64,000 nt of DNA from Pseudomonadota bacterium (GCA_027622715.1 JAQBYN010000015.1:11745-75744); one strand, 5' to 3'. Positions 9,014 through 61,187 are shown, numbered from the stretch's first letter. Numbers and translations are program-made. The notes: generated by a model from the sequence alone, not told the origin.

Positions 9014-9023
9014 GCGGCAGCTC

Positions 9024-10138: not shown

Positions 10139-10291
10139 GCCGATATGCCGACGATTCGGTCACGGCCGGGCGGCGCCTCGTTCGCCAGTGGCGACACCCC
10201 TACCTATTGCACTTGCTACAAGCCGCGCCCGGCGCGACCATCCACCCGCAATAACCGTGATGCACAAACAAAAATCGTTGGGGAGGCTCAG

Positions 10292-11815
10292 ATGAATATG
10301 CCCTTAGGGATGTATCGTTCGGCGCGCCTAGTCGCTGTCGTCCTAGTGCTCGCCGTTGTTAGCCCGCTAGCGGGATACGCACAGTCCGCCAAGCTAACCT
10401 TCCTTCACATCAACGATGTATATGAAATTTCGCCGCGGCGCGGCATCGGCGGGCTCGCCGAATTGATGACGCTGTTACGTCAAGAACGCGCCCAAGCTGA
10501 AAACCATATCACCACATTGGGCGGCGACTTGGTGTCACCCTCCGTGATGTCGGGGCTGACCAAGGGCAAGCAAATGATCGCGCTGATGAACGCGATCGGC
10601 GTCGACTATGCCGGCCTCGGCAACCACGAATTCGATTTCGGCGATGACCTGCTCAAGCAACGCCTGTCCGAATCAAAGTTTTCCTGGCTTGCGACCAACA
10701 CCCTCGAGAACGGCAAACCGTTTGGCGGGATGGCTGCGACAGCGGTTCGCGACATCGGTGAATTCAAGGTTGGCTTCTTCAGTGTCCTGACCCCGGAGAC
10801 CACTCATTTGTCGAGCCCCGGGAGCGCGATCACGTTTGCCCCGGTTGAGGACGCCGCTAAACAGGCGATCGCCACGTTAAAGGAACAAGGCGCGCACTTC
10901 ATCGTTGCGCTGACGCACTTGGACTTGGCTCAGGACCGCGCGTTGGCGCGCGCGCTTGGCGATATCGACATCATCCTGGGCGGCCACGACCACGATCCAA
11001 TCATGATTTACGAGGGCAGCACGTTGATCCTAAAGGCCGGGACCGACGCCCACTTTCTGGCTGTTGCCGATGTCACCCTGATCAAAGGCGAATCGCGCGG
11101 CACTGTGACCTACTCATTCCAACCGGAATGGCGGCTTCGGACCACGGCCGGCGTGCAACCCGATCCCGAGGTCGCGGCGTTGACCGGGAAATACAATGCC
11201 GAGCTTGATGCCGAACTGTCGATCCCGGTCGGAAAAGCCGGTGTCGAATTGGATAGCCGCCGAGCAAGTGTGCGCACCCGTGAAACCACGATGGGCAATC
11301 TCATTGCGGACGCCATGCGGGCCAGTGTGACGGCCGATATCGCGCTGACCAACGGCGGCGGCATTCGCGGCGACCGTACCTACGACGCCGGTTCGACACT
11401 GACCCGCAAGGACGTGCTGACCGAATTGCCGTTCGGCAACGTCACGGTTGTTCTTGAGCTCAAAGGGTCCGACCTTCTGGCGGCACTCGAGAACGGCGTA
11501 AGCCGCATCGAAGACACCGCGGGCCGCTTTCCCCAAGTCTCCGGGGTGCGCTTTTCGTTCGACTCGACAAAACCAGCCGGCAGTCGCGTCAGCGATGTCA
11601 ACGTCGGCGGTCAGGCGTTGGACGCCAACAAACTGTACCGCGTTGCGACCAATGATTTCATCGCGGGCGGCGGCGACGGGTTCGATGCACTGACGGCGGG
11701 GCGGGTGATCGTCGACGCCGCCGGCGCGACCCTGATCGCGACGATGGTGATGGACTACATCTCGGCCAACGGGACCGTTACACCGAAAGTCGATGGCCGG
11801 ATTAGCGGTCGTTAA
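10292..11815 (+). CDS. periplasmic bifunctional metallophosphatase/5'-nucleotidase (UshA-like) with signal peptide
   Basis: A GGGAGG ribosome-binding site precedes the ATG at 10292. The N-terminus is MNMPLGMYRSARLVAVVLVLAVVSPLAGYAQS. The calcineurin-like motifs INDVYE and GNHEFDFG are present. A C-terminal 5'-nucleotidase domain is present. The upstream in-frame extension starting at 10031 has no coding character. Confidence 0.85.
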   Translation: MNMPLGMYRSARLVAVVLVLAVVSPLAGYAQSAKLTFLHINDVYEISPRRGIGGLAELMTLLRQERAQAENHITTLGGDLVSPSVMSGLTKGKQMIALMNAIGVDYAGLGNHEFDFGDDLLKQRLSESKFSWLATNTLENGKPFGGMAATAVRDIGEFKVGFFSVLTPETTHLSSPGSAITFAPVEDAAKQAIATLKEQGAHFIVALTHLDLAQDRALARALGDIDIILGGHDHDPIMIYEGSTLILKAGTDAHFLAVADVTLIKGESRGTVTYSFQPEWRLRTTAGVQPDPEVAALTGKYNAELDAELSIPVGKAGVELDSRRASVRTRETTMGNLIADAMRASVTADIALTNGGGIRGDRTYDAGSTLTRKDVLTELPFGNVTVVLELKGSDLLAALENGVSRIEDTAGRFPQVSGVRFSFDSTKPAGSRVSDVNVGGQALDANKLYRVATNDFIAGGGDGFDALTAGRVIVDAAGATLIATMVMDYISANGTVTPKVDGRISGR

Positions 11816-11872
11816 ACGGTTGCCCGGCCGGGTCGCATCAATGCGGCGCGATCCGGCTGGCGACCGACTGCC

Positions 11873-12655
11873 ATGACCGATGCCGTCTTAGCGGGTTTCG
11901 ACCGCACGACTTTTACGCACAACGGCAAGACCCGCCCGGTATTCAGCGCGGGCAGCGGTCCCGGCGTTATCGTGATTCATGAGGTTCCCGGTATTACGCC
12001 CGAGGTTGCACGGTTTGCCACCTGGGTCGTCGAGGCCGGGTTTCATGTCGCGATGCCGTCGTTGTTTGGCGCCCCCGGCAAACCAAAATCGACCGGCTAC
12101 ATCCTGGGTTCCTTCGCCCGGGCCTGTATCAGCCGTGAATTCAATTGCCTCGCCGCCGAACGGTCGAGCCCGGTCACGGACTGGCTGCGGGCGTTGTGCC
12201 GTACAGTGCATGCCGAGTGCGGGGGATTAGGGGTCGGCGCGGTGGGGATGTGCCTGACCGGCAACTTCGCGCTCTCACTGATGGTCGAACCGTCGATGAT
12301 GGCGCCGGTCTTGTCCCAGCCGTCGCTACCCCTGCCGGTTGGAAACAGGCGGCGGGGCGCGCTGCACCTGTCTCCTGCAGATTTGGACACCGCCAAGGAA
12401 AGAACGCGACAAGGCGTCCGCATTCTTGGCCTGCGATTCGACACCGATCCGACCTGCCCTGGCGCGCGCTTTGCGCGATTACGGGAGGAGTTCGGGGCCG
12501 ATTTCGAAGCGATCGAAATTCCGGGCCACTTTGCCGCGACAAAAATGCGGCACAGCGTCTTGACCAACGACCTTGTCGACGAAGTCGGACACCCAACAGT
12601 GGCGGCCCGCGACCGCGTGTTGACGTTTCTCGCGGCGCAACTCAAGCCGGCTTGA
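11873..12655 (+). CDS. dienelactone hydrolase family protein
   Basis: 260 aa with an alpha/beta-hydrolase fold. It shows the DLH-like elements VIVIHEVPGITPE and GMCLTGNFA, a nucleophile-elbow-like motif. Confidence 0.75.
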   Translation: MTDAVLAGFDRTTFTHNGKTRPVFSAGSGPGVIVIHEVPGITPEVARFATWVVEAGFHVAMPSLFGAPGKPKSTGYILGSFARACISREFNCLAAERSSPVTDWLRALCRTVHAECGGLGVGAVGMCLTGNFALSLMVEPSMMAPVLSQPSLPLPVGNRRRGALHLSPADLDTAKERTRQGVRILGLRFDTDPTCPGARFARLREEFGADFEAIEIPGHFAATKMRHSVLTNDLVDEVGHPTVAARDRVLTFLAAQLKPA

Positions 12656-12710
12656 TCACTGCGCCAGGCGGCGCACAAACGAGATCTCGTGCTACCCTGC
12701 GTGTGGGCAG

Positions 12711-13799
12711 GTGGGACCATGCCGAACGTGGAACAGAACAGTGACAGCCGAGAACCTCGATCTGGCCAGTTTTGGCTGGAACGCCTTTTTTGAATCCCAG
12801 CGTCAGCTTGACGATCAGGCCGACGCCGTGCCCGTGCGCGTCATGTCGGTTCACCGCGCCGGCCTTAGTGTTGCCGCGCCGGGCATTGATCTCCTGATTC
12901 CGACGATCAAAGCCTCCCCGGGCAATGAAGCGGCCGCTGCCACGGTTGGCGACTGGCTGCTGCTCGACCGCGAAACGTCGGCGCCGCGCCTAATGCAACG
13001 CAAGAGCCTGTTCTCGCGCCGCGCCGCCGGTGCCGCCCGTAAGCTGCAACTCATCGCCGCCAATGTTGACACGCTATTTGTCGTGTCGTCGTGCAACGAA
13101 GACTTCAACGTCGCCCGTTTGGAACGCTATCTCGCGCTGGCGCGCGAGGCAGACGTGACGCCGGTTATCGTACTCACCAAAGCCGACCTGACCGACGAGC
13201 CTGAAGAATTTGTCCGCGCGGCCGCTGCCCTCATGCCTGGCCTCATGGTCGAAATTGTCGATGCGCGCGATCCGAAGAGCGTTGCCGGTCTCGCTGCCTG
13301 GTGTGGGCTGGGCCAGACCGTCGCGCTGGTCGGCTCGTCCGGCGTCGGTAAATCGACTCTTGTGAACACGTTGACCGGTATCGACCAAGCCGCGACGCAG
13401 AGCGTTCGTGAGGAAGACGGTAAGGGGCGCCACACGACATCGGCCCGCTCGCTCCATCGTTTGCCCACGAAGGGCTGGATTGTGGACACGCCGGGCATGC
13501 GGGAATTGCAGCTGACCGATATTACGACTGGCATCGACGAGGTTTTTGCCGATGTTGTCGCGTTGATCAAGGAATGCAAATTTACCGATTGTCGCCACGA
13601 GGCGGAACCCGGCTGCGCGGTCCTGGCCGCGATCGCCGCCGGCACATTCGATTCCGCACGGCTGACACGCTGGCAGAAACTCGTCGCCGAAGAAGCCCAC
13701 AACACGGCCAATCTCGCCGAGCGACACGCGCACGATCGAACATTCACCAAGAAGATCAAGGTCGCGGTAAAGAGCAAGCGGCGCCCGCGCGGAAGATGA
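12711..13799 (+). CDS. rsgA: ribosome small-subunit-dependent GTPase A
   Basis: A circularly permuted GTPase. It has an OB-fold N-terminus, a G4-like VLTKADL motif, a VGSSGVGKSTLVN P-loop, and a C-terminal zinc-finger-like CKFTDCRHEAEPGC. Confidence 0.85.
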   Translation: MGPCRTWNRTVTAENLDLASFGWNAFFESQRQLDDQADAVPVRVMSVHRAGLSVAAPGIDLLIPTIKASPGNEAAAATVGDWLLLDRETSAPRLMQRKSLFSRRAAGAARKLQLIAANVDTLFVVSSCNEDFNVARLERYLALAREADVTPVIVLTKADLTDEPEEFVRAAAALMPGLMVEIVDARDPKSVAGLAAWCGLGQTVALVGSSGVGKSTLVNTLTGIDQAATQSVREEDGKGRHTTSARSLHRLPTKGWIVDTPGMRELQLTDITTGIDEVFADVVALIKECKFTDCRHEAEPGCAVLAAIAAGTFDSARLTRWQKLVAEEAHNTANLAERHAHDRTFTKKIKVAVKSKRRPRGR

Positions 13800-40340: not shown

Positions 40341-41413
40341 CGACACCGCTGGGCGCGCACCTGCGCCAAATGATCGCGATAAATGGACCGATCACGGTTG
40401 CCCGTTTCATGGCCGAGGCACTCGGCAACCCGGATCACGGTTACTACATGACGCGCGATCCCTTCGGCGCAACCGGCGACTTCATTACAGCGCCCGAAGT
40501 TAGCCAGATGTTCGGCGAGCTGTTCGGCGCCTGGTGCGCGGACCTCTGGCGTCAAATGGGGATGCCCAGTCCGGTCGCCCTAATCGAGGTCGGGCCCGGC
40601 CGCGGTACGCTCATGAGCGATGCGTTGCGCGCGACACGCCAAATTCGCGGTTTCCACGCCGCTCTGAATATCCACCTCGTCGAAACCAGCCCGCTATTGC
40701 GTGCCCGCCAAGCCAGTGCGCTGGCGGCATACGATGTCCGTTGGCACGACGCTGTCGATGATGTCCCAACCGGCCCCGCCATCGTCGTGGCGAACGAACT
40801 ATTCGACGCGTTGCCGATACACCAATTCCAGTTTGCCGACGGACAGTGGCATGAACGTCTAATCGAATTCGCCGAGGATGGCGCCTTTCGCTTCGTGTTG
40901 GACCCGACCGGGGCGAGGTTCCCAGGCCTAAATCGCTTTGCCGATCCGCCGCCAAATGCAATCGCCGAAATCTGTCCCAGCGGCGCGGCGCTGGCGCTGC
41001 AGTTGGCGGGACGGCTCGCCGGACATCCCGGCGCCGCGTTGATCGTGGATTACGGACACGTTCAACCTGGCTTTGGCGATACGGTTCAAGGTGTCCGCGC
41101 CCATCGTGCCCAGGACATCTTCGATGCGCCGGGCACCGTTGATATCTGCGCCCACGTCGACTTTGCCGCCCTGCGTGACGCCGCCCATGATGGCGGTGCC
41201 CGCGTTTGGGGCCCGGTCGCGCAAGGCGCTTTCCTGACACAACTGGGGATCGAAACGCGCGCCGCTGCCCTAACGGCAGCGTCACCGACCGACAGCGCGT
41301 CGATCGCCGCCGACATGCACCGATTGACCGGTCCTAACGAGATGGGCAGGCTGTTCAAGGTGCTCGCTTTGACCAGCGCCGGACTCGAACCGGCCGGATT
41401 CGACGATACATGA
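40337..41413 (+). CDS. class I SAM-dependent methyltransferase, DUF185/NDUFAF7 (MidA) family
   Basis: 358 aa. The characteristic FITAPEVSQMFGEL and a VEVGPGRGTLMSD SAM motif are present. It overlaps the lgt stop by 4 nt. Confidence 0.85.
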   Translation: MTTPLGAHLRQMIAINGPITVARFMAEALGNPDHGYYMTRDPFGATGDFITAPEVSQMFGELFGAWCADLWRQMGMPSPVALIEVGPGRGTLMSDALRATRQIRGFHAALNIHLVETSPLLRARQASALAAYDVRWHDAVDDVPTGPAIVVANELFDALPIHQFQFADGQWHERLIEFAEDGAFRFVLDPTGARFPGLNRFADPPPNAIAEICPSGAALALQLAGRLAGHPGAALIVDYGHVQPGFGDTVQGVRAHRAQDIFDAPGTVDICAHVDFAALRDAAHDGGARVWGPVAQGAFLTQLGIETRAAALTAASPTDSASIAADMHRLTGPNEMGRLFKVLALTSAGLEPAGFDDT

Positions 41414-42171
41414 TTCAATCTGAATTGCTTTCCTCTGCGCCCGGCGTCGTGCATGGATTTTTCACGCGCCAGGGCGGGGTATCGACCGGCATCTACGCAT
41501 CACTCAATTGCGGCGTGGGCTCAGACGACTCGCGCGACAATGTCGGCGACAACCGAGCTCGGGTGCTCCAACAGATCGGGGTCCCGACTGGCACGCTGAA
41601 TACCGTTCACCAGGTCCACGGAACGACGGTTGCTACAGCGACCGGTGCCTGGCCGACCGAGCCGCCGGTCGCGGACGGCGTTGTCTCCAACACACCCGGT
41701 GTGGTGCTCGGCATTTTGACGGCCGATTGCGCACCCGTTTTGTTCGCGGACTTTGACGCGGGCGTCATTGGCGGCGCCCATTGTGGCTGGCGCGGCGCGC
41801 TGGATGGGGTTGCCGAACAGGTTCTCGAACACATGGTCGCTATGGGCGCGCGGACGAGCCGCATCGCCGCCGCCGTCGGCCCGGCAATTGCGCAAGCGTC
41901 ATACGAAGTAAGCACCGACTTCGAAGTGGCCTTCCTCGCCAAAGATCCGCGCGCGACAGTCTTCTTTGCGCCCGGAAAATCTGGTCACGCGCAATTCGAT
42001 CTGCCGGGTTATGTGGTGGATCGACTAAGGCGGGCCGGGCTGATGTCCGTGGCCTGGACGGGGCATGACACGTATGTGGGCGAGGCCGACTTCTTCAGCT
42101 ATCGCCGTGCCACGCACCGGCACGAGACAGACTACGGACGCCAGGTCTCGGCAATTGCGCTCGCCACCTAA
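41410..42171 (+). CDS. pgeF: peptidoglycan editing factor PgeF (YfiH/laccase-domain, Cu-oxidase_4)
   Basis: 253 aa. VHGFFTRQGGVS, TADCAPV and GWRG are present. It overlaps the upstream stop by 4 nt. Confidence 0.88.
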   Translation: MIQSELLSSAPGVVHGFFTRQGGVSTGIYASLNCGVGSDDSRDNVGDNRARVLQQIGVPTGTLNTVHQVHGTTVATATGAWPTEPPVADGVVSNTPGVVLGILTADCAPVLFADFDAGVIGGAHCGWRGALDGVAEQVLEHMVAMGARTSRIAAAVGPAIAQASYEVSTDFEVAFLAKDPRATVFFAPGKSGHAQFDLPGYVVDRLRRAGLMSVAWTGHDTYVGEADFFSYRRATHRHETDYGRQVSAIALAT

Positions 42172-49809: not shown

Positions 49810-49920
49810 CCGGACATTTGACCACTCGGTGGTCGGCAGTTGGCCCGCCTGAGATTCCACACTACGCTTCGTGTTCTAACTCAGACCATCGTGTTTTGAA
49901 AAAACTTGTGGGAGGACGAC

Positions 49921-50985
49921 GTGGGCAGATTTTTTGGATCCATTGCGCTGGTGCTGGCGCTAACTTTCGGCGCAGTTAGCGCTCAGGCGCAGGAAGTTAA
50001 ATGGCGATTGCAGAGCATCATTCCGGTCAACACGTTCTTCTGGACCGAAATGGTGAAGAAATACACCGATCAGGTTCTCCTCCTTTCAGGTGGGCGAATC
50101 GACATCACGCCGTTCGGCGTTGGTGAAATCGTCCCCGCATTCCAGGTGCACCCGGAAGTCGCCAAGGGCACCGTCGATGCTGGCTGGACGTCAGCCGCAT
50201 TTCTCGCGAACGCCGACCCGACCAACGCCATTCTGTCGGACTTTCCCGGCGGCCCGTCGCCTGAAACCTACATGCATTGGTATTACAACGGTGGCGGCAA
50301 AGAGCTGCATCAGCAGTACCGCAAAGAGGTGCTGGGGGTCCACGCGATGTTGCTCGGCATCGGCACCACAGAGTTCTTTGCGGTATCCACCAAGCCGATT
50401 CGCACCAAGGACGACCTGAAAGGGTTGAAGCTGCGCACCACGGGGGCGTGGGCCACGGTCATGAAAGAGTCGTTCGGCGGATCTACCGTCGTCATGCCGT
50501 CGGGCGAAATCTTCAGCGCGCTCGAACGCAAGGTCATCGATGCGGTCGACTGGGCAGGTCCAGGCGGCAATCTCGGTATGGGTTTTCACAAGGTTGCCAA
50601 GTATCTGATCGTCCCCGGGGTCCATCAGCCCTCGTCGCCGGTCGAACTGATTATCAACTTGGACAAGTGGAATGCGTTGTCCGATGCGGACAAACAGCTC
50701 CTCGAGTTGGCGGCCCAGCTGACGACGTTCCAGTCGTATATGGCAACGGGTCAAGCCGACCAAGCTGCGATGCCGGAATATCGCAATAACGGCAACGAGT
50801 TCGTTACGCTTGATCCGGCGCTTCAGGCCGAAATCAAAGCTGAAACGTTGAAATGGCTTCAGGCCCGTGCGACGGAGCAGAGCGAAAAAGGCAACCCGTG
50901 GACGCAGCGCATGCTCGATTCGATTCTGACCTATCAAGCAACCTGGGCCGGCAACGGCTTTACCCGAGCCTGGGACGCTGAGTAG
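49921..50985 (+). CDS. dctP: TRAP transporter substrate-binding protein (DctP family) with signal peptide
   Basis: The GTG at 49921 is preceded by GGGAGG. The signal peptide FFGSIALVLALTFGAVSAQAQE is present. About 354 aa with a DctP fold. Confidence 0.82.
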   Translation: MGRFFGSIALVLALTFGAVSAQAQEVKWRLQSIIPVNTFFWTEMVKKYTDQVLLLSGGRIDITPFGVGEIVPAFQVHPEVAKGTVDAGWTSAAFLANADPTNAILSDFPGGPSPETYMHWYYNGGGKELHQQYRKEVLGVHAMLLGIGTTEFFAVSTKPIRTKDDLKGLKLRTTGAWATVMKESFGGSTVVMPSGEIFSALERKVIDAVDWAGPGGNLGMGFHKVAKYLIVPGVHQPSSPVELIINLDKWNALSDADKQLLELAAQLTTFQSYMATGQADQAAMPEYRNNGNEFVTLDPALQAEIKAETLKWLQARATEQSEKGNPWTQRMLDSILTYQATWAGNGFTRAWDAE

Positions 50986-51002
50986 CAGCCATTCCTGAAA
51001 AC

Positions 51003-51040
51003 CCGGGGGGCTGGCCCATCCGGTCCGCCCCCCTTTTTCG
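51003..51040 (+). terminator. rho-independent terminator/attenuator after dctP (GGGGGGC…GCCCCCC followed by T5)
   Basis: A G6C/GC6 stem closed by TTTTT, seen at 51005-51038 between dctP and dctQ. Confidence 0.65.
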
Positions 51041-51051
51041 TTGCAACGAAC

Positions 51052-51588
51052 TTGATCGCACGTTTCGTTAAGATCGCCGACGCCATCTCATTTGCGACTG
51101 CGGTCGTCGCGATGGCGATGATCCTCGGCCTGGTGGCATCTATGCTCTACGAGGTTGCCGCGCGCTACATCTTTAACGCCCCGACGATCTGGGCGTATGA
51201 CGTGTCCTACATGCTCAACGGTGCGCTGTTCATCCTGGCGGCAGGCCTGACGCTCACCAAGAACAACCATGTGCGAATAGACTTTCTGTCCTCGCGGTTG
51301 AAACCGCCGACCCAGCATTTGATCAATGCGATCTTCTACTTGGTTCTGTTTCTGCCGGCGCTCGGCTTCGTGACACGGTCGAGCATCATCGCTGCGTGGA
51401 GCGCACTAATGACAGGTGAGGTTGAGGCAATTAGCCCTTGGGCTCCGGTCATCTGGCCTTTCAATGCGGCGATCGCCATTGGCCTCGCCGCGTTATGGCT
51501 CCAGGCGGCGGCCGAGACTCTGCGCCATATTCTGGGTGCCAGAGACGCGAGCGCCGCCCGCGCGCCCGGCGTTTCTCTGCCGCATTAG
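51052..51588 (+). CDS. dctQ: TRAP transporter small permease (DctQ family)
   Basis: 178 aa with 4 TM helices. The typical …YEVAARYIFNAP… region is present. The start codon is uncertain (TTG at 51052 or an internal Met). Confidence 0.75.
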   Translation: MIARFVKIADAISFATAVVAMAMILGLVASMLYEVAARYIFNAPTIWAYDVSYMLNGALFILAAGLTLTKNNHVRIDFLSSRLKPPTQHLINAIFYLVLFLPALGFVTRSSIIAAWSALMTGEVEAISPWAPVIWPFNAAIAIGLAALWLQAAAETLRHILGARDASAARAPGVSLPH

Positions 51589-51596
51589 ATTCGTTC

Positions 51597-52919
51597 ATGG
51601 ATTCCAGCTTCCTGTCCGCCCTGATGTTCCCGGCGCTTTTCGCGCTGATCTTCCTCGGCATTCCTGTGGCCTTCGCGCTAATCAGCGTGGCATTTGTGTT
51701 CGGGTTTGTCGCGTTTGGCGACACGATCGGCCAGGTCCTTTACGGTCGTGCAATGGGCGTCGCCGCCAGCTCCGTTCTTGCGGCGATCCCTCTGTTTATC
51801 TTCATGGGATCGATGCTGGAGCGCACGTCAATCGCCAAACGATTGTTCGAAGCGATGCAGCTATGGTTGGGTCGTATGCCGGGCGGTCTCGCGGTGGCGA
51901 CCATCACCATGTGCGGTGTCTTCGCGGCGGCGACCGGGATTATCGGCGCCGTCGAAACGGTCATCGGGATGATGGCGATCCCACCGATGCTGAAACACGG
52001 ATACGACAAAGGATTGATTTCGGGCACGATTTGCGCGGGTGGGTCGCTCGGCACGATCATTCCGCCGTCGGTCACTGTCATCATCTATGCGTCGATCGCC
52101 GAACTTTCCATCGGTGATCTGTTTGTTGGAATCATCATTCCCGGTCTGCTGATGATTCTCTTCTTCGTTGGCTACATCTTCATCCTTGGAATCATAAGAC
52201 CCGACCGCGCGCCAAAACTTCCTCGCGAACTTGTCTCGGTGCCTTTGGGCCAAAAACTCAAGGTCACCGCCACAGGATTGCTCCCCGCAACAATTCTGAT
52301 CGGCGCCGTCTTGGGATCGATCATCTTTGGTGTCGCCTCGCCGACGGAAGCGGCGGCGGTCGGCGCTGGCGGCGCGCTGGTGCTGTCGCTCGTTTACCGT
52401 GAGTTTTCCTGGACAGTCCTCTATGAGGTCGCCCGAAAATCTGTCTCTATCAGCGCGATGGTGATGCTGATCGTGGTCGGCGGCGGCATGTTTTCAGGTG
52501 TGTTCCTCGTCAACGGCGGCCGCGACTTGGTCGCCGGTGCAGTCGAGATATTGAATTTGCCACCGGCCGGGCTCGTCGCGGTCTTTTTGCTGATCGTGTT
52601 CCTTTTTGGCTTTGTGCTCGATTGGATCACCATTGTGTTGATCGCGTTGCCAATCTTCTTGGCGCCGCTCAAAGCAGCGGGTGTCGATCAAGTATGGTTC
52701 GCCGTCTTGATGATCGTCGTCATCCAGACCAGCTATATGACGCCCCCGATGGCGCCGGCGATCTTCTATTTGCGCTCGATCGCACCCAAGGAAATCACCT
52801 ATGGCCACATGTACCGCGGGGTGATGCCCTTCGTGGTCGCCGAACTGTTGGTTCTGGCGGTGGTCGCGCTCTTTCCCTGGACCGCGACGTATCTGCCGAC
52901 GGTTCTGCTGGGGTTCTAG
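51597..52919 (+). CDS. dctM: TRAP transporter large permease (DctM family)
   Basis: The ATG at 51597 gives MDSSFLSALMFPALFALIFLGIPVAFAL. About 440 aa with many TM helices. Confidence 0.88.
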   Translation: MDSSFLSALMFPALFALIFLGIPVAFALISVAFVFGFVAFGDTIGQVLYGRAMGVAASSVLAAIPLFIFMGSMLERTSIAKRLFEAMQLWLGRMPGGLAVATITMCGVFAAATGIIGAVETVIGMMAIPPMLKHGYDKGLISGTICAGGSLGTIIPPSVTVIIYASIAELSIGDLFVGIIIPGLLMILFFVGYIFILGIIRPDRAPKLPRELVSVPLGQKLKVTATGLLPATILIGAVLGSIIFGVASPTEAAAVGAGGALVLSLVYREFSWTVLYEVARKSVSISAMVMLIVVGGGMFSGVFLVNGGRDLVAGAVEILNLPPAGLVAVFLLIVFLFGFVLDWITIVLIALPIFLAPLKAAGVDQVWFAVLMIVVIQTSYMTPPMAPAIFYLRSIAPKEITYGHMYRGVMPFVVAELLVLAVVALFPWTATYLPTVLLGF

Positions 52920-53767
52920 CCGGCGACAAACTCTAGAATCACGCCGCATGCATCCTCCGGGGCCACACGGATCATGTCGTTCAGGCTTTCATGCGTGGCG
53001 CCCGCCGACACAAGACAGGCTTCGGCCGCCGCCAGGTTGTCGGTTTCCAGCGTTAGGATCGCGATCGCCGGCGGCGGGTGGCTAATAGCGGCCGCATATC
53101 CGACGTAGTCCTCAGCCAAACTGGCCGCGGTAAGGAAACGAAAATCGCCGTGGCCGGTGAAGATTTCGAAACCGCCGGCGATTGGCCGCGCAGCGGCACC
53201 AAAAAGGCGCTCGTAATGCGCGCGCAAAGCCGTGGGCTCATTGACCGCAATCGTCATGGATCGAATGCGCCGCGCGCCGTTGGCGTGGGTGACCCAAGCG
53301 GGGCGCCGCATGTTTTGCGGCGTCAGCGGTTGCACCAGCATCAGGTACATGTCCGGCGTTGCCGCCTCGCCGATCTTGAGCCAGCGAAACGACTGCGGCA
53401 CCACGCCGTCGGGCGCCTCGCAGTTGATCGTCACCTCGTTCAGGGGCGTCGGATCGGCGCCTAGGCGGCTTAGGGCGTCGTGGGCAGCGGCGACATCGTT
53501 GGCCCGTAGTGTGACGGCCATCGCGCCTTCACCACCGGCCAGAAAATCCGCAAGCCCAGGGGTTAGAAAAGCCGCGGGATCGACAACACCCAGGAGTTCG
53601 ATGAAGTCTTTGTCGTCGAACATGACGCTGTGATTGGCGGTGCCCCAGCCGACCATGCGCCGGCGGGGTGTCGTCGTGAAGCCGAGGCGTTCGAACTGCG
53701 TCTTGGCGTGTGCGAGGTCGGCGACCGCGACGACCGCATGATCGATCCCGTCTATACCATTGGCCAT
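52916..53767 (-). CDS. VOC (glyoxalase/bleomycin-resistance/dioxygenase) family protein, two-domain
   Basis: 283 aa. HAVVAVADLAHAKTQFERLGF at the N-terminus is a typical VOC beta-alpha-beta-beta-beta start. It is the last gene of the minus-strand mtnP operon. Its stop overlaps the dctM stop convergently by 4 nt. Confidence 0.7.
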   Translation of the reverse strand: MANGIDGIDHAVVAVADLAHAKTQFERLGFTTTPRRRMVGWGTANHSVMFDDKDFIELLGVVDPAAFLTPGLADFLAGGEGAMAVTLRANDVAAAHDALSRLGADPTPLNEVTINCEAPDGVVPQSFRWLKIGEAATPDMYLMLVQPLTPQNMRRPAWVTHANGARRIRSMTIAVNEPTALRAHYERLFGAAARPIAGGFEIFTGHGDFRFLTAASLAEDYVGYAAAISHPPPAIAILTLETDNLAAAEACLVSAGATHESLNDMIRVAPEDACGVILEFVAG

Positions 53768-53815
53768 CGCGCGATCCCCTGCTCCACTCAGTCGCCACGG
53801 TAAATCATATCGCGA

Positions 53816-55873
53816 CTAGCGTAGCGCCGCCGCGATGTTGCCGCCGTCCACCGTCATCACCGCGCCCGTTGATTTGCGCGCGAGGGCAAGATCGACAAAG
53901 GCCTGGGCGACGTCTGCCGCCTTGACCTCGCGGTTCAGGAGGTTGCCCGAGCGCAAATATTGTTCCGGGGTCAAGCCGCGCGCCTTGGCGCGCTGTTCCA
54001 AAAGGCCGTCGGCGAAGATCCCGGTATTGACCCGGTCGGCGTTGACCGCGCCGGTGCGAATTCCGGCACTGCCGTAATCCAAAGCGTATTGGCGCATGAG
54101 AAACAGCGTCGCCGCTTTCGGCAGGCCGTAGGGGCCGAAATCAGGCCCTGGATTGACTGCCTGTTTGGACGTGTTGAACAGCAAGCAGCCGCCGGTGCCT
54201 TGCGCCAGCATGATCCGCACGGCCTCTTTGGCGACCGATTGATGGGCAAAGAAGTTGAGCTCGAACGAGGCGCGCAAGTCGGCGTCATCGACCTCGCCAA
54301 TCCGGCCCTGCCAAGCTGCCCCGGCGTTGGAAACGACAATATCGATACCGCCGAAAGCGCGGCAGACCTGGGCCAGGGCTTCGGTGACGTGGGCCGGATT
54401 GGTGACATCACACTCAATGCCGATCGCCGCGCCGCCGATCTCGCCCGCGGCCCGGCGCGCACCGGCATCGTCACGGTCGAGGAGCGCGACCTCCGCCCCC
54501 CGCGCGGCCATTGCTCGCGCGGTAGCGGCGCCGATGCCGCTGGCCGCCCCGGTGACCACGGCGATCTGGCGGGCCAACGGTTGCTCGGCGCCCTTGCCCA
54601 GCTTGGCTTGTTCGAGCGACCAGTACTCGACATCGAATAGATCGGCCTCCGACACCGGCAGGAAGGTGCCGATGGCTTCGGCATCGGTGACGACGTCGAT
54701 CATATTTTCGCTAATGTCGGCGGCGATGGCGGCATCCTTGGCAGACTTGCCCATCCCAAAGATGCCGAGGCCGGGGACCAGCGCCACCCGCGGCATTGGG
54801 TCGAGTTCGGTTTTCTCAGGCCCGCGCTTCCCGTTGTGCCGGGCGAAATAGGCGTGGTAGTCGTCGACAAAGCGCGCCACGGCCGCCTGCGCCCCGTCGC
54901 GAAAGACCGTGACGTCGTCAGCCGCCGGCAGAACCACCGGCCAATTCTTGGTGCGGATGGTGTGGTCTGGGGTCACCACGCCTTGCTGGGCGTAACGCGC
55001 GACCTCGGCACCGCCGACAAAATTAAGGATCGCCTCCGATGTCCGGAAGGCCAGTACCTGGCGCTGCCATATGCCGTCATTGTCATCGACGCATTGCGCA
55101 ACCAAACCCCGAACCACCGGCGCCACCTGCGCCACGGTCAGCCCCTTCTTGGGGAGGGTTGCGGCAGAGAACGTTCGGGTTGTCGCCTTGGCCAGGCGTT
55201 TCTCGGCCAGCGTCACGAGCACGATCATGCGCGCGTAGGCCTCTTGTGCCGTGGCACCAAAGCTGAAAATGCCGTGTTTGAGCAGGATCAGACCTTCGAC
55301 GTCGGGATGGTCCGCCTGTACTTCGGCGGCGAGCTTGGCGAGGCCAAAGCCCGGCATGACGTAGGGCACCAAGGCCGCACGCTCGCCGTAAACCTCAGCG
55401 CAGATCGCCTCGCCGTCGGGCTGATCGGTCAGCGCAAGGACGGCAGTTGAGTGGGTATGGTCGATGAACTTGTGCGGCAGAAATGCATGCAACAGCGTTT
55501 CGACCGACGGATTGGGCGAGGCCGGATCGATTAGCGCGGTGCGCTGGATCGCCACCATGTCTTCGTCGCTCAGCGTGTCGAGGCTTCGCAGGCGGCGCAG
55601 TACGTCCATGCGGACCGCCGGAAGCCCGGCGGGCTCGATGTTGCCCATGTCCCATCCCGAGCCCTTCACGCACAGCACCTCGGCGCTGTCGCCTAATTTA
55701 TCGACCGCCGTGGTCTTGACCGATGTATTGCCCCCACCGTGCAGCACGAGGCGTGGGTCGCTGCCCAGTAGCCGGGTGGTATAGACGCGCACGGCAACAT
55801 CTTCGCCGATGCCCTGGGCGGCGTAGCGGGCGACATAGTCCCGGGCTTCGGCGGGCTTCCAGCGTGAGTCCAT
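53816..55873 (-). CDS. bifunctional class II aldolase (rhamnulose/fuculose-1-phosphate aldolase-like) and short-chain dehydrogenase fusion
   Basis: 685 aa. The N-terminal approximately 420 aa form a RhaD-like class II aldolase/adducin domain. The C-terminal approximately 250 aa form an SDR. Its cofactor motif is VVTGAASGIGAATARAMAARGAEVALLDRD and its catalytic motif is YGLPKAA (YxxxK). Confidence 0.85.
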   Translation of the reverse strand: MDSRWKPAEARDYVARYAAQGIGEDVAVRVYTTRLLGSDPRLVLHGGGNTSVKTTAVDKLGDSAEVLCVKGSGWDMGNIEPAGLPAVRMDVLRRLRSLDTLSDEDMVAIQRTALIDPASPNPSVETLLHAFLPHKFIDHTHSTAVLALTDQPDGEAICAEVYGERAALVPYVMPGFGLAKLAAEVQADHPDVEGLILLKHGIFSFGATAQEAYARMIVLVTLAEKRLAKATTRTFSAATLPKKGLTVAQVAPVVRGLVAQCVDDNDGIWQRQVLAFRTSEAILNFVGGAEVARYAQQGVVTPDHTIRTKNWPVVLPAADDVTVFRDGAQAAVARFVDDYHAYFARHNGKRGPEKTELDPMPRVALVPGLGIFGMGKSAKDAAIAADISENMIDVVTDAEAIGTFLPVSEADLFDVEYWSLEQAKLGKGAEQPLARQIAVVTGAASGIGAATARAMAARGAEVALLDRDDAGARRAAGEIGGAAIGIECDVTNPAHVTEALAQVCRAFGGIDIVVSNAGAAWQGRIGEVDDADLRASFELNFFAHQSVAKEAVRIMLAQGTGGCLLFNTSKQAVNPGPDFGPYGLPKAATLFLMRQYALDYGSAGIRTGAVNADRVNTGIFADGLLEQRAKARGLTPEQYLRSGNLLNREVKAADVAQAFVDLALARKSTGAVMTVDGGNIAAALR

Positions 55874-55950
55874 GGCGAGGGCGCGATCCTGGTTAGCGTT
55901 TCAGTCGAGAGTTAGCGGCTTTTAGCAGCGTCGAGCAACGGCCCACGGCC

Positions 55951-57051
55951 TCAAGCCCGTTCAGGATACAGGGTGAGCAGACCGGCTTCGCTGGCGGCGC
56001 ACGTTCCGCGGTCGGTAATCAGTCCGGTAACAAGGCGGGCCGGCGTGACATCGAACGCATAATTGGCAGCCGGCGCGCCTTCGGGACCAATTCGGACGGT
56101 TTGAATCGATCCGTCGGCGGCTTGCCCGGTCATCAGCGTTACTTCGCTGGCATCGCGCTGTTCGATCGGAATATCGCGGCCTGAGGATAACTCCCAGTCG
56201 ATGGTCGGCGACGGCAACGCGACATAGAACGGCACGTCGTTGTCGAATGCGGCGAGAGCCTTGAGATAGGTGCCAATTTTATTGGCGACATCGCCGCTGC
56301 GCGTCGTGCGGTCGGTGCCGGTAATACACAGATCGACCTGGCCGGCTTGCATCAAATGACCACCCGTATTGTCGGCGATCAACGTGTATGGCACGCCGTG
56401 TTCTTGCAGTTCCCACGCCGTCAGCGCGGCGCCCTGATTGCGCGGCCGCGTTTCGTCGACCCACACATGCAGCGGTACGCCTTCGTCGTGGGCCACGTAG
56501 ATTGCCGACAACGCGGTGCCCCAATCCACTGTTGCCAGCCAGCCCGCGTTGCAGTGGGTCAAGATGTTGACCGGTTCGGCTGGCGACCCGTCTTTTTTCT
56601 CGTGCCACAGGCGCACGATGTGTTCGGCGCCATGTTCGCCGATGGCACGGTTGATATTGGCATCGTCATCGCAGATTTCGACCGCCCGGCGATAGGCCGC
56701 CGCAACGCGGCGCTCGGGGGGCGTGTTGGCGAGAACAGACCGCAGATCATCCAGCGCCCAGCGCAGATTGACCGCAGTCGGTCGGGTCGCCAGCAGGCGA
56801 TCATACGCCACCGCGATCCCTGCATCGGACGGATCTGCTCGCATCGCCAACGCCATGCCGTACGCCGCCGTGGCGCCAATGAGTGGTGCACCGCGGACTT
56901 GCATGGTGGTAATGGCCGCCGCCGCCGCATCGACGGTGCGCAACGAACGAACGACGAACGCGTGCGGCAGCTGCGTCTGGTCGATGATATCGACGCTCCA
57001 GCCGTCCGTGTTGAGCCAGATTGAACGGTAGTGGGTGCCGCCGACCTTCAT
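55951..57051 (-). CDS. mtnA: S-methyl-5-thioribose-1-phosphate isomerase
   Basis: 366 aa, eIF2B-like fold. The motifs GAPLIGATAAYG, CNAGWLATVDWGTALS and the GTDR segment are present. Confidence 0.9.
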   Translation of the reverse strand: MKVGGTHYRSIWLNTDGWSVDIIDQTQLPHAFVVRSLRTVDAAAAAITTMQVRGAPLIGATAAYGMALAMRADPSDAGIAVAYDRLLATRPTAVNLRWALDDLRSVLANTPPERRVAAAYRRAVEICDDDANINRAIGEHGAEHIVRLWHEKKDGSPAEPVNILTHCNAGWLATVDWGTALSAIYVAHDEGVPLHVWVDETRPRNQGAALTAWELQEHGVPYTLIADNTGGHLMQAGQVDLCITGTDRTTRSGDVANKIGTYLKALAAFDNDVPFYVALPSPTIDWELSSGRDIPIEQRDASEVTLMTGQAADGSIQTVRIGPEGAPAANYAFDVTPARLVTGLITDRGTCAASEAGLLTLYPERA

Positions 57052-57069
57052 GATGATTAGGGCCGCGAC

Positions 57070-57597
57070 CTAGTCGCCGTCGAAGGCGCACAGGAAATGG
57101 ACGGTGTGGCCTGAATCGCGGATTCGTTGCGCCCCGCCAAGGTCGGGCAAATCCACGACAAACGCGCAGGACACGATATCGCCACCGATCGCTTCGATTA
57201 GCGCGATTGCCGCCATCGCGGTGCCGCCGGTGGCGATTAGATCGTCGACCAGAAGCACCTTTTCACCCTCGAGAATGGCGTCATCGTGGACCTCGACCCG
57301 GTCGGTGCCGTATTCGAGCTGGTAGTCACGGCCGATGGTTTTGCCGGGCAATTTGCCCTTCTTGCGGATCGGCACGAAGCCGGCCTCAAGTTTCTCGGCG
57401 ACGGCCCCACCCAAAATAAACCCGCGCGCCTCGATGGCCGCGACCTTATCGATCCGTTGCCCAGCATATGGCTGGATCAAACCCTCAATTGTCAGCCGAA
57501 ACCCGACTGGATCCTGCAGCAGGGTCGTGATGTCGCGAAACATGATCCCCGGTTTTGGATAGTCCGGAATGGTCCGAATGCGTGATTTGATCGGCAT
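57070..57597 (-). CDS. apt: adenine phosphoribosyltransferase
   Basis: 175 aa. The PRPP motif [13 protein letters not shown] is present. The N-terminus is [15 protein letters not shown]. Confidence 0.95.
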
Positions 57598-57598
57598 G

Positions 57599-58492
57599 TT
57601 ATTGCGTCCTTAATACTCGCCCAGCGACGGCGTCCAGCTTGGCCAGCAGTGCAGGATCGCGGGCCTCGGGGGCGGTGATCATCGCCGAGTCCAATGCCCG
57701 GTCGCAGCCATGCGTGCAGGTTGCAAGACGGGCCGCGGCGACACCGGGGACCACGCTCTTGACCAGAGCGCGGGCATTGTCGGCGTTTTGGGACAGAACT
57801 TTAATAATGTCAGCGACCTCGACATCGTCGTGGTGCGGATGCCAGCAATCGAAATCGGTCACCATCGCGACCGTCGCGTAACACATCTCAGCTTCGCGGG
57901 CGAGTTTGGCCTCAGGCATGTTGGTCATGCCGATCACGTCGCAGCCCCATGAGCGGTACAGTTCAGACTCGGCGCGGGTCGAAAACTGCGGCCCTTCCAT
58001 GCACAAGTAGGTGCCGTTGCGCACGACCTTGAGATTTAGGTCGAACGCTGCCGCCTGGAGCGCGTCGCCGAGGCGAGCGCACACCGGGTTCGCCATCGAG
58101 ACGTGGGCAACCATGCCTTTGCCAAAGAAGCTTTTTTCACGCGCAAAGGTGCGGTCGATGAACTGATCGACGATGACAAAAGTACCGGGCTCAAAGTGTT
58201 CGCGGAACGATCCCACCGCCGACAGTGAAATGATATCCGTCACGCCAGCGCGTTTGAGAATATCGATGTTGGCGCGGTAATTGATGTCTGACGGGGCGTG
58301 GACATGGCCACGGCCATGGCGCGGCAGGAAAACCACCCGGACCCCGTCGAGCGATCCCGTAAATACAGCATCCGATGGCGCGCCCCAGGGCGATTCGATT
58401 TCAATCCATTGGGTATCGGTTAGCCCAGCGATTTCGTAGAGACCCGAACCGCCGAGGATACCGACTACCGGTTTAGTGTGCTGTTCGTTCAT
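57599..58492 (-). CDS. mtnP: S-methyl-5'-thioadenosine phosphorylase
   Basis: Starting at 58492 gives [29 protein letters not shown] fold is present ([27 protein letters not shown]). Confidence 0.9.
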
Positions 58493-58549
58493 GGGATTCA
58501 CCAGATCGCAGGATGGTTCGCCCACTGTAATTCATTCCAGGATCGAACC

Positions 58550-58590
58550 CGAAACGCCGCCAAAGAAGAGGCCGCAAAAGCGGCCTCTCT
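58550..58590 (-). terminator. rho-independent terminator of the petABC operon (GAGGCCGC-AAAA-GCGGCCTC)
   Basis: A perfect 8-bp stem with a 4-nt loop at 58568-58587. On the minus strand it is followed by TTCTTTGG. It lies 20 nt after the petC stop. Confidence 0.65.
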
Positions 58591-58610
58591 TCGCGTTGCT
58601 GCGTGCGATT

Positions 58611-59387
58611 CTAGTGGTCCAGCTTGCGCCAAACCCGTTGTTTGACGATGAGGAACAGCCCGGTCAGCAGGATCAAATAGACCATCACCTGAAAGCCGAT
58701 TTGGTGCCGGCGCTCCAGCTCCGGGTTCGCGGCCCAATGGAGAAACGTGGTGACATCTTCGGCCATCTGTTCGACCGACGCCTCGGTACCGTCGGCATAT
58801 TCAACCATGCCTTCGCTGAGCGGCGCCGGCATCGCAACCTGATGGCCCGGGAAATACACGTTGTAGTTCATGCCGGGACCCATGGTCATGTCGGCGGGCG
58901 CATCTTCATACCCCACCATCAACGCGCGGATGTAATCCGGCCCATGCTCGCGGGCCTTGGTGATCAGCGAAAGATCCGGCGGCAATGCGCCGCTGTTGGC
59001 CGCCCGCGCCGCTTGTGGGTTCTGATACGGCGCCGGGAAAATGTCGGAAAGCGCCGCCTTCCGTGTTGTCGGATCGCCAAATTCGTCGGGCTCGCCGGCA
59101 ACTTCATACTCCTCGGCAAGTGCTTTCGCCTCGCCCTCGGTGAACCCGATATCAACCAAGTTGCGGAATGCGACGTACTTCATGGCGTGACACGAGGCAC
59201 AGACGTCTTTGTAGACCTTGTAACCGCGTTGCAATGCGGCCCGGTCGAACGTGCCGAAAAGGCCGTTGAATGACCAGTCTTGGGCGGGCGGCAGCGCCTC
59301 GGCCTCAGCGGCGCTCACTTGGTTTGCGCCGGTGGCCAGGATTAGGCTGACCGCCGCCGCTGTCAGAATCCCACGCAACTTAGTCAT
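58611..59387 (-). CDS. petC: cytochrome c1
   Basis: Signal peptide. Haem motif CASCHAM. C-terminal TM anchor. Confidence 0.93.
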
Positions 59388-60634
59388 TCTGCGGCCTCCG
59401 CCACGGCCGCGCCGCTTTTGAGCACGGGTTTGCTAATACTTTCCGGCAACGGTCTGGGTCGTTCGAACCATCCCACGAACGGCAGGATGATCACAAAATG
59501 GGCAAAGTAGTAGGCGGTCGCCAAGCGGCCGATCAACAGAGACGCGCCCTCCGGATGCTGCGCCCCGACCCATCCGAGGATGATGACATCGAGCACGAAG
59601 ATCCAGAAAAAGTAGCGATAGGTCGGCCGGAACCGAGCGGACCGTACCCGTGACGTATCGAGCCATGGCAGCAGGAACAGGATGGCAATTGACGCCCCAA
59701 ACATGACGACCCCACCGAGCTTATCGGGAATCGACCGCAAGATCGCGTAGAACGGCAAGAAGTACCATTCAGGCACGATGTTTGCCGGCGTTTGCAACGG
59801 ATCGGCCGGTTTGAAGTTGTCGGGATGCGACAGGAAGTTTGGTTCGTAAAACACCAAAAAGGCGAGGACGATGAAGGATAGGCCAATCACCGACATGTAC
59901 TTGGAGGTGTAATACGGATGGTACGGAATGGTGTCTTGCTTGCTGCGGGTCGAAATCCCAACGGGATTTGACGATCCATGAACGTGCAACGCCCAGACAT
60001 GGAGGAGCGAGATCCCGAAAATCACGAACGGCAACAAATAATGCAAGCTGTAGAAACGTTGTAGCGTCGGGCTATCGACGGCAAACCCGCCCCACAGCCA
60101 CGTGGTGATTCCGTTGCCAACCAACGGGATCGCCGAGAATAGGTTGGTGATCACCGTGGCCGCCCAAAAGCTCATTTGGCCCCACGGCAGGACGTAACCC
60201 ATAAACGCCGTCGCCATCATGACGACAAAAATGACCACGCCAATGATCCACAATAATTCCCGTGGCGCCTTGTACGAGCCGTAGTACATGCCGCGCAAAA
60301 TGTGCAGATAAACCGCGGCGAAAAACAGCGAGGCGCCGTTGGCGTGGACGTAGCGCAACAGCCAACCGTAATTGACGTTGCGCATGATTTGCTCGACCGA
60401 ATCGAAAGCCATTGCCCCGTTCGGAATGTAATGCATCGCCAGGAAGATGCCCGTGGCGATCTGAATGATCAGCGCGAGAAACAGAACCGATCCGAGCGAC
60501 CACCAATAGTTGAGGTTCTTCGGCGTCGGCATGTCGCGACCGATCGTCGCTTCCACCGCACTGAAAATGGGCATGCGATATTCGACCCATCGAATCAGGC
60601 GGTTGTTGTACTGGCGTGCAGGTCCTCCGGCCAT
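59384..60634 (-). CDS. petB: cytochrome b
   Basis: 416 aa. [26 protein letters not shown], haem-ligand His residues and a PEWYFLPFY motif are present. Confidence 0.95.
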
Positions 60635-60644
60635 CTAACGTCCC

Positions 60645-61187
60645 CTACCCGAGTTGGATTGTTGTATCGCTGATGAACGAATAGGGCGGCACATCGAGAT
60701 TCTTTGGTGCCGGGCCTTTGCGAATGCGCCCCGAGGTATCGTAGTGCGATCCATGACAGGGGCAGAACCAACCGCCGAAATCACCAAGACGCTCGCCGAC
60801 GCGCTGCCCCTGAGGAATGCACCCCAGATGAGTGCAGATTCCGATCAACACAAGCCATTCTTTGCGCTGGACCCGGTCGGCATCGGCTTGTGGATCCTTT
60901 AGATCCCCGAGCGCAACACCCTCCGCCTCCTCAATTTTTGCCGGCGCGCGATGGTCGATAAAGACCGGTTTCTTGCGCCATAATACAGTGATCCGCTGAC
61001 CCTCCTCGATCGGCGTGAGATCAACCTCCGCGGTCGCCTCCGCCAACACGTCGCGAGACGGGTTCATTGAATTCACAAAGGGCCAAACTGCCAAGCCAGC
61101 GCCTACCGCCGATGCCGAAATTGCGGCAACGAAGATGAAGTCGCGGCGGGGTCCCTCTTCGCCCGGGTGCGGGGCCGTCGTCGCCAT
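60645..61187 (-). CDS. petA: ubiquinol-cytochrome c reductase iron-sulfur (Rieske) subunit
   Basis: Rieske boxes CTHLGC and CPCHGS. Tat-like N-terminus with a TM anchor. Confidence 0.95.
   Translation of the reverse strand: MATTAPHPGEEGPRRDFIFVAAISASAVGAGLAVWPFVNSMNPSRDVLAEATAEVDLTPIEEGQRITVLWRKKPVFIDHRAPAKIEEAEGVALGDLKDPQADADRVQRKEWLVLIGICTHLGCIPQGQRVGERLGDFGGWFCPCHGSHYDTSGRIRKGPAPKNLDVPPYSFISDTTIQLG

Follow-up and report, generated by a model that had tools for sequence, protein, structure and literature searches.

A RhaEW-type aldolase/short-chain dehydrogenase fusion encoded with mtnP and mtnA is a candidate substitute for Ald2 in the dihydroxyacetone phosphate shunt

Which enzyme acts after MtnA in a locus that carries mtnP and mtnA and none of mtnB, mtnC, and mtnD? 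The question was raised by a minus-strand gene cluster (positions 52916-58525) in a 64,000-nucleotide stretch of DNA from a Pseudomonadota bacterium (GCA_027622715.1 JAQBYN010000015.1:11745-75744); the whole 64-kb stretch is called the window, and its numbering is used throughout. In transcription order, the cluster consisted of mtnP, apt, mtnA, a gene for a 685-residue fusion of a class II aldolase with a short-chain dehydrogenase/reductase (SDR), and a gene for a VOC protein, with gaps of 1, 18, 77, and 48 bp. A previous sequence-only reading had described this order with gaps of 1 to 80 bp, which was confirmed (1-77 bp), and had noted that mtnB, mtnC, mtnD, and rhamnose or fucose genes were missing nearby. 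A Pfam survey of essentially all open reading frames (ORFs) showed that these absences held across the window, in which no mtnB, mtnC, mtnD, mtnK, or mtnN gene, no RuBisCO-like protein, and no rhamnose or fucose gene was found, and a tblastn search of the window with E. coli Ald2 as the query returned no Ald2 homologue. Of the gene set of the dihydroxyacetone phosphate (DHAP) shunt, these 64 kb contained MtnP, MtnA, and an adjoining aldolase-domain protein, with no mtnB, mtnC, or mtnD within them. The FucA-like Ald2, also named DrdA, is the only DHAP-shunt aldolase described in the literature searched (PMC6079011, PMC10986504, PMC5893883), and a review of July 2026 recognizes only two characterised variants of the shunt and describes the 2-methylthioacetaldehyde-converting enzyme as unknown (PMC13474568). 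No description of a RhaEW-type fusion with mtn genes was found in the literature searched, including the supplement of Beaudoin 2018, although a mention in the primary DHAP-shunt papers is possible. Our analysis suggested that the fusion probably takes the place of Ald2 in the DHAP shunt, where it would cleave 5-methylthioribulose-1-phosphate (MTRu-1-P) or 5-deoxyribulose-1-phosphate to DHAP and then process the aldehyde with NAD.

The fusion consisted of an N-terminal class II aldolase domain, a family-specific middle domain, and a C-terminal classical SDR domain. The aldolase domain matched PF00596 (Aldolase_II) with 85.7 bits against a cutoff of 22.2 (residues 31-224), and the SDR domain matched PF00106/PF13561 above the gathering thresholds (residues 436-678). 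The whole protein, residues 1-685, aligned to positions 1-685 of the profile NF006192 (“bifunctional aldolase/short-chain dehydrogenase”, PRK08324.1-6) with 1021 bits against a cutoff of 639; this model is broad and also accepts proteins from other sugar contexts. Full-length alignments were likewise obtained to the PRK08324 models and to the protein of locus L087. The fusion stayed below the cutoffs of both rhamnose equivalogs, TIGR02632 (478 bits, cutoff 567.75) and NF006189 (441 bits, cutoff 634). An analysis of 24 orthologues revealed that the aldolase motifs G46-G-G-N-T-S51, K70-G-S-G73, E125, H129, H139-x-H141, and H200-G were invariant, and by inspection these corresponded to the GNVS, PSG, PSSE (IPSSE), HTH, and HHG motifs of E. 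coli Ald2. The metal-binding histidine triad (H139, H141, and H200), the catalytic acid E125, and the phosphate-binding segments G46-S51 and S72-G73 were thus all present, and the domain belonged to the class II aldolase/adducin fold. In the SDR domain, T441-G-x3-G-I-G448, N540, S569, and Y582-x3-K586 were invariant in the same orthologues and provided the TGxxxGxG motif and the N-S-Y-K tetrad of a classical SDR with a Rossmann fold. Asp466 at the end of strand β2, a position that marks a preference for NAD over NADP, was invariant as well. Both catalytic centers therefore look intact. The nearest structural neighbours were alcohol and polyol dehydrogenases.

The sequence-only reading had asked whether the aldolase domain groups with Ald2 or with RhaD. 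The profile comparison pointed to neither and instead placed it among the RhaE-type aldolase domains of PRK08324 fusions. When the aldolase domain alone was scanned, strong matches were obtained only to PRK08324-type fusion models, and the FucA, AraD, RhaD, and MtnB models reached E-values of about 1e-4 or worse. The Ald2 of E. coli S88 (L082:370-1011), whose gene ECS88_4903 is the counterpart of R. rubrum Ald2 according to Sekowska et al. (PMC6302742), was a FucA-like protein of 213 residues with 366 bits on NF005984. No profile similarity was detected between it and the aldolase domain of the fusion (hhalign probability 0.13, from a shallow alignment with Neff 1.8); this negative is weak alone and was backed by the NCBIfam scores and by sequence searches of the PDB, in which phmmer with the aldolase domain returned 3m4r only and neither DrdA nor FucA. 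By these profile matches, the domain is of the RhaE type, neither Ald2 nor the E. coli type of RhaD, and belongs to a subfamily distinct from the rhamnose RhaEW enzymes. Because it groups with neither Ald2 nor RhaD, the fusion would represent a non-orthologous displacement and not a fused Ald2, and the best reading of the data is that it displaced Ald2 without being related to it.

The gene context of mtnA was consistent with such a displacement. Metagenome contigs were scanned with an MtnA alignment, which gave 80 loci, 53 of them evaluable. The fusion adjoined mtnA in 11 of the 53 and the FucA-like Ald2 in 15, the remaining 27 had neither, and both together beside mtnA were found in none (0/53). 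Alternation of this kind, with either the fusion or Ald2 in a single position, is typical of non-orthologous gene displacement. Where neither was present, the gene downstream of mtnA looked unrelated by eye, for example MmcB-like genes, peptidases, or an MFS transporter. Six of the 11 fusions adjoining mtnA were 57-64% identical to the window protein and five were 38-45% identical. The latter group comprised the arrangements mtnK-mtnA-fusion (L147), apt-mtnA-fusion (L146), and fusion-mtnA (L132, L154, and L166); the fusion in L146 was of the NF006196 type, which showed that a second fusion subfamily is also linked to mtnA.

The same linkage was seen from the side of the fusion. At least 600 matches were obtained when one genome of each GTDB species was searched, and 80 loci were kept from these; ORFs of these loci were clustered with a GC3 filter suited to DNA of high G+C content, and linkage was counted by tblastn with the window proteins in the 73 loci with enough upstream sequence. 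In 38 of the 73, mtnA and/or mtnP lay upstream of the fusion on the same strand, mtnA was less than 300 bp upstream in 26, and mtnP, apt, and mtnA were all present in 19. The mtn-linked loci occurred on all deep branches of a neighbour-joining tree of 79 orthologues and included contigs binned as Gemmatimonadales, Longimicrobiales, and Tepidisphaeraceae; the adjacency of fusion and mtn genes is a property of the contig and independent of binning, whereas the taxon labels depend on it. No Ald2 homologue was found in any fusion locus. Rhamnose genes were not seen around the 80 orthologues, and rhaA, rhaB, rhaI, and rhaS were found neither in the window nor in the approximately 90 loci examined. 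In L013 (8319-8915), and at the corresponding place in approximately nine Rhizomicrobium/Micropepsaceae-type loci (cluster 24), a gene for a protein of approximately 198 residues that by eye resembled a glutathione S-transferase was inserted between apt and mtnA to give the order mtnP-apt-X-mtnA-fusion.

At least five different gene orders linked the fusion with mtnA, mtnP, or mtnK. Replicon pTM3 of Tistrella mobilis KA081020-065 carried petB-petC-mtnP-mtnA-fusion, the fusion (L088:10001-12049) being 62.7% identical to the window protein. An E. coli island contains mtnK-mtnA-ald2 together with a transporter and MtnR (PMC12632272), and it was closely paralleled by plasmid pOANT04 of Brucella (Ochrobactrum) anthropi ATCC 49188, in which the fusion (OANT_RS24825, 57% identical) stood where ald2 would be, in a cluster with a SorC-type regulator, a sugar ABC transporter, mtnK, mtnA, and a split transketolase. 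The same layout was found in Shinella sumterensis and Ensifer adhaerens. This layout represents the kinase form of the pathway, placed in a catabolic context. The split transketolase was encoded as separate N- and C-terminal subunit genes directly behind mtnK-mtnA in both B. anthropi (L085:11132-12799) and E. adhaerens (L090:18581-19513). Transketolase acts on 5-deoxyribose in the synthesis of 7-deoxysedoheptulose.

A pathway can be proposed from these data. MtnP would phosphorolyse the nucleoside to adenine and 5-(methylthio)ribose-1-phosphate or 5-deoxyribose-1-phosphate, Apt would recycle the adenine to AMP, and MtnA would isomerise the sugar phosphate to its ribulose-1-phosphate form, all three steps being assigned on equivalog-level homology. 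The idea that apt serves to recycle the adenine released by MtnP had been put forward before and is reasonable, with apt lying between mtnP and mtnA in 19 loci. The N-terminal, metal-dependent RhaE-type domain would then split MTRu-1-P or 5-deoxyribulose-1-phosphate into DHAP and 2-(methylthio)acetaldehyde or acetaldehyde; this step is proposed because the class II aldolase machinery is intact, the domain is homologous to RhaE, and the gene context fits. The C-terminal NAD-type SDR domain would convert the aldehyde without releasing it. That one polypeptide performs both steps of the shunt had been suggested by the sequence-only reading, and comparative genomics supported it well, through the conserved linkage to mtnP, mtnA, and mtnK in several independent arrangements, the lack of co-occurrence with Ald2 beside mtnA, and the lack of rhamnose genes in the contexts examined.

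The redox step of the pathway can be read in two directions. By analogy with RhaEW, it would most likely oxidise the aldehyde with NAD+, in tight coupling to cleavage, and give 2-(methylthio)acetate or acetate; oxidation to the acid was favored because RhaEW, the only characterised relative, oxidises with NAD+. The complete scheme, an “oxidative DHAP shunt” in which one RhaEW-type polypeptide couples cleavage to NAD+-dependent oxidation, yields DHAP, NADH, and 2-(methylthio)acetate or acetate, and never releases the aldehyde, is put forward tentatively, with somewhat more against it than for it. Alternatively, cleavage of the same two substrates by the aldolase domain would be followed by an NADH-dependent reduction of the aldehyde in the SDR domain, with 2-(methylthio)ethanol or ethanol as the product. 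This version, which as a whole is rather doubtful, would agree with the habit of SDRs to interconvert alcohols and carbonyls, with the structural neighbours named above, and with the 2-(methylthio)ethanol observed in R. rubrum and R. palustris, which make the alcohol in vivo and not the acid (PMC5893883); the dehydrogenase responsible is unknown (PMC13474568). RhaEW, however, is inactive with NADH, and the invariant Asp466 marks an NAD enzyme, which suits a catabolic oxidation, although it would still be compatible with NADH-dependent reduction. Reduction is a serious alternative, because it is the alcohol that builds up in the organisms studied to date. If the aldolase assignment is right, we would lean only slightly toward oxidation.

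Several observations weigh against the assignment of the fusion to the DHAP shunt, and most of them concern its substrate. About half of the orthologues, mainly in the Reyranella and Xanthobacteraceae clades, had no mtn linkage, and part of the linkage that was found is the inherited synteny of one pet-mtnP block. Fusions of R. etli p42a (L086) and S. meliloti Ak57 (L091) that were 51-52% identical to the window protein lay in non-mtn sugar clusters with a SorC regulator, an FGGY kinase or an sn-glycerol-1-phosphate-dehydrogenase-like/Fe-ADH gene, a HAD hydrolase, an ABC transporter, and an SDR. Even so, NF006192 was the best-scoring model for one of the two fusions. These clusters point to another sugar substrate, and their gene content indicates that the NF006192 “equivalog” is functionally heterogeneous. 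Substrate specificity clearly differs within the fusion family; homology alone therefore does not carry the assignment of the window protein, which depends on context. Additionally, it is possible that the Ald2 of R. palustris (RPA4655) is itself such a fusion. Together with a stand-alone homologue in an autoinducer-2 (AI-2, lsr) locus, the housekeeping neighbours of the unlinked orthologues, and the conserved backbone formed by the pet-mtnP-apt-VOC block, the non-mtn sugar clusters would fit a model in which the fusion acts on another phosphorylated ketose, such as a deoxy-sugar or a damaged sugar phosphate, and lies beside the mtn genes by inherited synteny. We consider this unlikely in view of the five or more gene orders that link the fusion with mtnA, mtnP, or mtnK, including the transporter-plus-kinase catabolic cluster on Rhizobiales plasmids, the mutual exclusion of fusion and Ald2 beside mtnA, and the mtnA linkage of the NF006196 subfamily.

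Two other functions had to be considered for the fusion. MtnB shares both the superfamily and the substrate (PMC6302742), and MtnB fusions with downstream enzymes are known (MtnBD and DEP1), so the fusion could be an MtnB-like MTRu-1-P dehydratase in an unusual salvage route that regenerates methionine. This is very improbable: the MtnB models gave only about 21 bits with the aldolase domain (21.1 for TIGR03328, cutoff 137) against cutoffs of 137-281, so that it falls outside the MtnB family; the nearest characterised relative is an aldolase; neither the window nor the annotated loci had mtnC, mtnD, or mtnW/X together with the fusion; and an SDR would have no obvious role after dehydration. 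An ordinary RhaEW, a rhamnulose-1-phosphate aldolase/lactaldehyde dehydrogenase, would have the identical domain architecture, and JGI pipelines indeed label homologues of the fusion “rhamnose utilization protein RhaD”. The scores below cutoff on TIGR02632 and NF006189, the identity of only approximately 30% to RhaEW from a true rha locus, and the lack of rhaA, rhaB, rhaI, and rhaS in the window and the surveyed loci make this the least probable explanation of all. A replacement of Ald2 in the DHAP shunt is still the reading that we prefer.

The loci without mtn linkage formed a few clades, namely Reyranella/Enhydrobacter, Xanthobacteraceae, and two others, and the genes next to the fusion there were of a housekeeping kind or unrelated. 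The Xanthobacteraceae neighbours, judged from sequence by eye, were rne and an aminotransferase. By eye, the neighbours in Reyranella/Enhydrobacter (for example, L026:~7000-13045 and L046:98-598) resembled a gpt-like xanthine-guanine phosphoribosyltransferase, a zinc-type alcohol dehydrogenase, a TctC-type binding protein, a TauD/TfdA-like dioxygenase, an aldo-keto reductase, and an amidohydrolase. The TauD-like gene was located directly downstream and could bear on an organosulfur acid product. The stand-alone homologue was encoded on S. meliloti pSymB (L092:8001-9251). It was a protein of 416 residues without the SDR domain, 45% identical over the aldolase and middle domains, the latter of which was retained. 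Its gene ended an AI-2 lsr-like operon (lsrK, a regulator, and lsrACDB), with a VOC gene approximately 1 kb downstream, and the protein may process phospho-AI-2 in place of LsrF.

The sequence-only reading had suggested that the VOC protein that ends the cluster may act on the sulfur-containing aldehyde or acid product. A role as a pathway component acting on the aldolase product was rejected, since no more than 6 of 80 loci had a VOC gene behind the fusion and homologues were present without mtnA and the fusion. These homologues (36-39% identity) stood behind mtnP or apt, as pet-mtnP-VOC in Pelagibius (L094:5027-6888) and as pet-mtnP-apt-VOC in Oceanibacterium hippocampi (L096:4567-6870), where the gap between apt and the VOC gene was 2 bp; neither mtnA nor the fusion was found in these two loci. 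The gene order cca-hemF-spoU-petABC-mtnP-(apt)-VOC ... DLH-ychF-pth-L25-prs was common to the window and the Pelagibius and Oceanibacterium loci. Because this wider order is kept without mtnA and the fusion, the VOC gene is part of the conserved pet-mtnP-apt backbone, into which mtnA and the fusion gene appear to have been inserted. It probably lies outside the aldolase module, is not required by the proposed scheme, and may be linked to mtnP and apt, that is, to phosphorolysis of 5'-methylthioadenosine (MTA) or adenine salvage. For this protein, neither a closely related solved structure nor an NCBIfam assignment was obtained.

The features of the cluster and its flanks are listed in Table 1. 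The mtnP product had 297 residues from an ATG at 58492 according to the gene caller on the source contig, and the longest ORF started from a GTG at 58525. The pet genes upstream are a conserved flank outside the pathway that recurred in 21-25 related loci and in Tistrella. Downstream, the stop codons of the VOC gene on the minus strand and of dctM on the plus strand overlapped by 4 bp (52916-52919), with no terminator-like hairpin between them. According to the Pfam survey, the rest of the window contained housekeeping genes, such as carB, greA, trxB, a fusA-like gene, uvrB, uvrC, moeA/moaDE, proC, lgt, prs, and pth. Rfam scans of the whole window at gathering thresholds and of 52700-58800 in a permissive mode gave nothing credible among riboswitches and small RNAs, which leaves a SAM riboswitch ahead of mtnP without support. 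Promoter and terminator consensus sequences occurred no more often than in shuffled sequence. A gene for a Cu-oxidase_4 (YfiH/PgeF/LACC1-type) protein was located at 41410-42171 on the plus strand, behind lgt and a Methyltransf_28 gene. Phosphorylase or deaminase activities on purine nucleosides and MTA have been reported for members of this family, and the window may thus encode a second enzyme that processes MTA.

Table 1. Positions in the window of the genes of the cluster, the predicted domains of the fusion, and the flanking genes
Feature	Position	Strand	Basis
mtnP, S-methyl-5'-thioadenosine phosphorylase	57599-58492	minus	NF006492 521 bits (cutoff 437); PF01048 match
apt, adenine phosphoribosyltransferase	57070-57597	minus	NF002634 273 bits (cutoff 170)
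mtnA, 5-methylthioribose-1-phosphate isomerase	55951-57051	minus	TIGR00512 401 bits (cutoff 279); NF004326 465 (cutoff 271)
Aldolase/SDR fusion, 685 aa	53816-55873	minus	PF00596, PF00106/PF13561, NF006192
RhaE-type class II aldolase domain, fusion residues 1-230	55184-55873	minus	PF00596, motifs
Family-specific middle domain, fusion residues 231-430	54584-55183	minus	matches PRK08324 models only
Classical SDR domain, fusion residues 431-685 and stop codon	53816-54583	minus	PF00106/PF13561, motifs
VOC (Glyoxalase_3) protein, 283 aa	52916-53767	minus	PF13468 residues 8-189, E = 1.3e-31
petA, petB, petC (cytochrome bc1), upstream flank	58611-61187	minus	Pfam and NCBIfam matches
TRAP transporter dctPQM, convergent, downstream of the cluster	49906-52919	plus	

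If the assignment is right, a function would be given to a large family, with more than 8000 homologues, that is now labelled only “bifunctional aldolase/short-chain dehydrogenase” or mislabelled RhaD. The DHAP shunt would gain a third variant, in which the key aldolase is replaced by a non-orthologous enzyme, and the gap named in the 2026 review, the enzyme that handles 2-(methylthio)acetaldehyde, would be addressed; should the SDR domain work as a reductase, the fusion would be the “missing alcohol dehydrogenase” of the described shunt. Predictions from genome sequences would change as well, since a lack of ald2 and mtnBCD would cease to mean that MTA or 5'-deoxyadenosine cannot be metabolised. 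With 2-(methylthio)acetate as the product, the sulfur would meet a different fate from that in the described route, which leads to methylthioethanol, methanethiol, and ethylene. An oxidative shunt would then be the main disposal route for by-products of S-adenosylmethionine (SAM) in many aerobic soil and freshwater Alphaproteobacteria and, combined with mtnK and the ABC transporter, a growth pathway in Brucella/Ochrobactrum, Shinella, and Ensifer. Cultured strains carry such clusters, namely Tistrella mobilis KA081020-065 and Brucella anthropi ATCC 49188, which makes direct testing feasible.

Among known enzymes, the fusion is closest in layout to RhaEW (B. subtilis YuxG and C. aurantiacus Caur_2283; TIGR02632 and NF006189), with which it shares the order of RhaE-type aldolase, middle domain, and NAD-type SDR. 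RhaEW cleaves rhamnulose-1-phosphate, a 6-deoxy-ketose-1-phosphate, into DHAP and lactaldehyde and oxidises the latter with NAD+ to L-lactate; it is inactive with NADH and does not cleave its substrate without NAD+ (PMC3870299). The chemistry proposed for the fusion would be alike, in that a deoxy-ketose-1-phosphate is split into DHAP and an aldehyde and the aldehyde is oxidised within one polypeptide, but the proposed substrates are the 5-carbon MTRu-1-P and 5-deoxyribulose-1-phosphate. The two also differ in sequence and setting. RhaEW from the rhaS/rhaI locus of Rhizobium leguminosarum, which reached 1192 bits on one and 1287 bits on the other of the two rhamnose models, was approximately 30% identical to the window fusion, and RhaEW has an aspartate where the fusion has E125. 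The context of RhaEW is formed by rha genes, whereas that of the fusion is formed by mtnP, mtnA, and mtnK. The sole solved relative, PDB 3m4r, is a structural-genomics entry that covers, in isolation, the class II aldolase domain from the N terminus of an uncharacterised protein of Thermoplasma acidophilum.

MtnBD of Tetrahymena and DEP1 of Arabidopsis likewise join a domain of class II aldolase fold to the next enzyme of MTRu-1-P metabolism; these are dehydratase-based and regenerate methionine, and their partner is a dioxygenase or a HAD phosphatase, unlike the SDR of the fusion. Ald2/DrdA (EC 4.1.2.62) is a FucA-like protein of approximately 213 residues and has no fused dehydrogenase, whereas the fusion carries its SDR in the same chain. 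The fusion nevertheless holds the equivalent genomic position, beside mtnA with mtnP or mtnK, and its aldolase domain shares the superfamily of Ald2/DrdA and is predicted to catalyse the same reaction.

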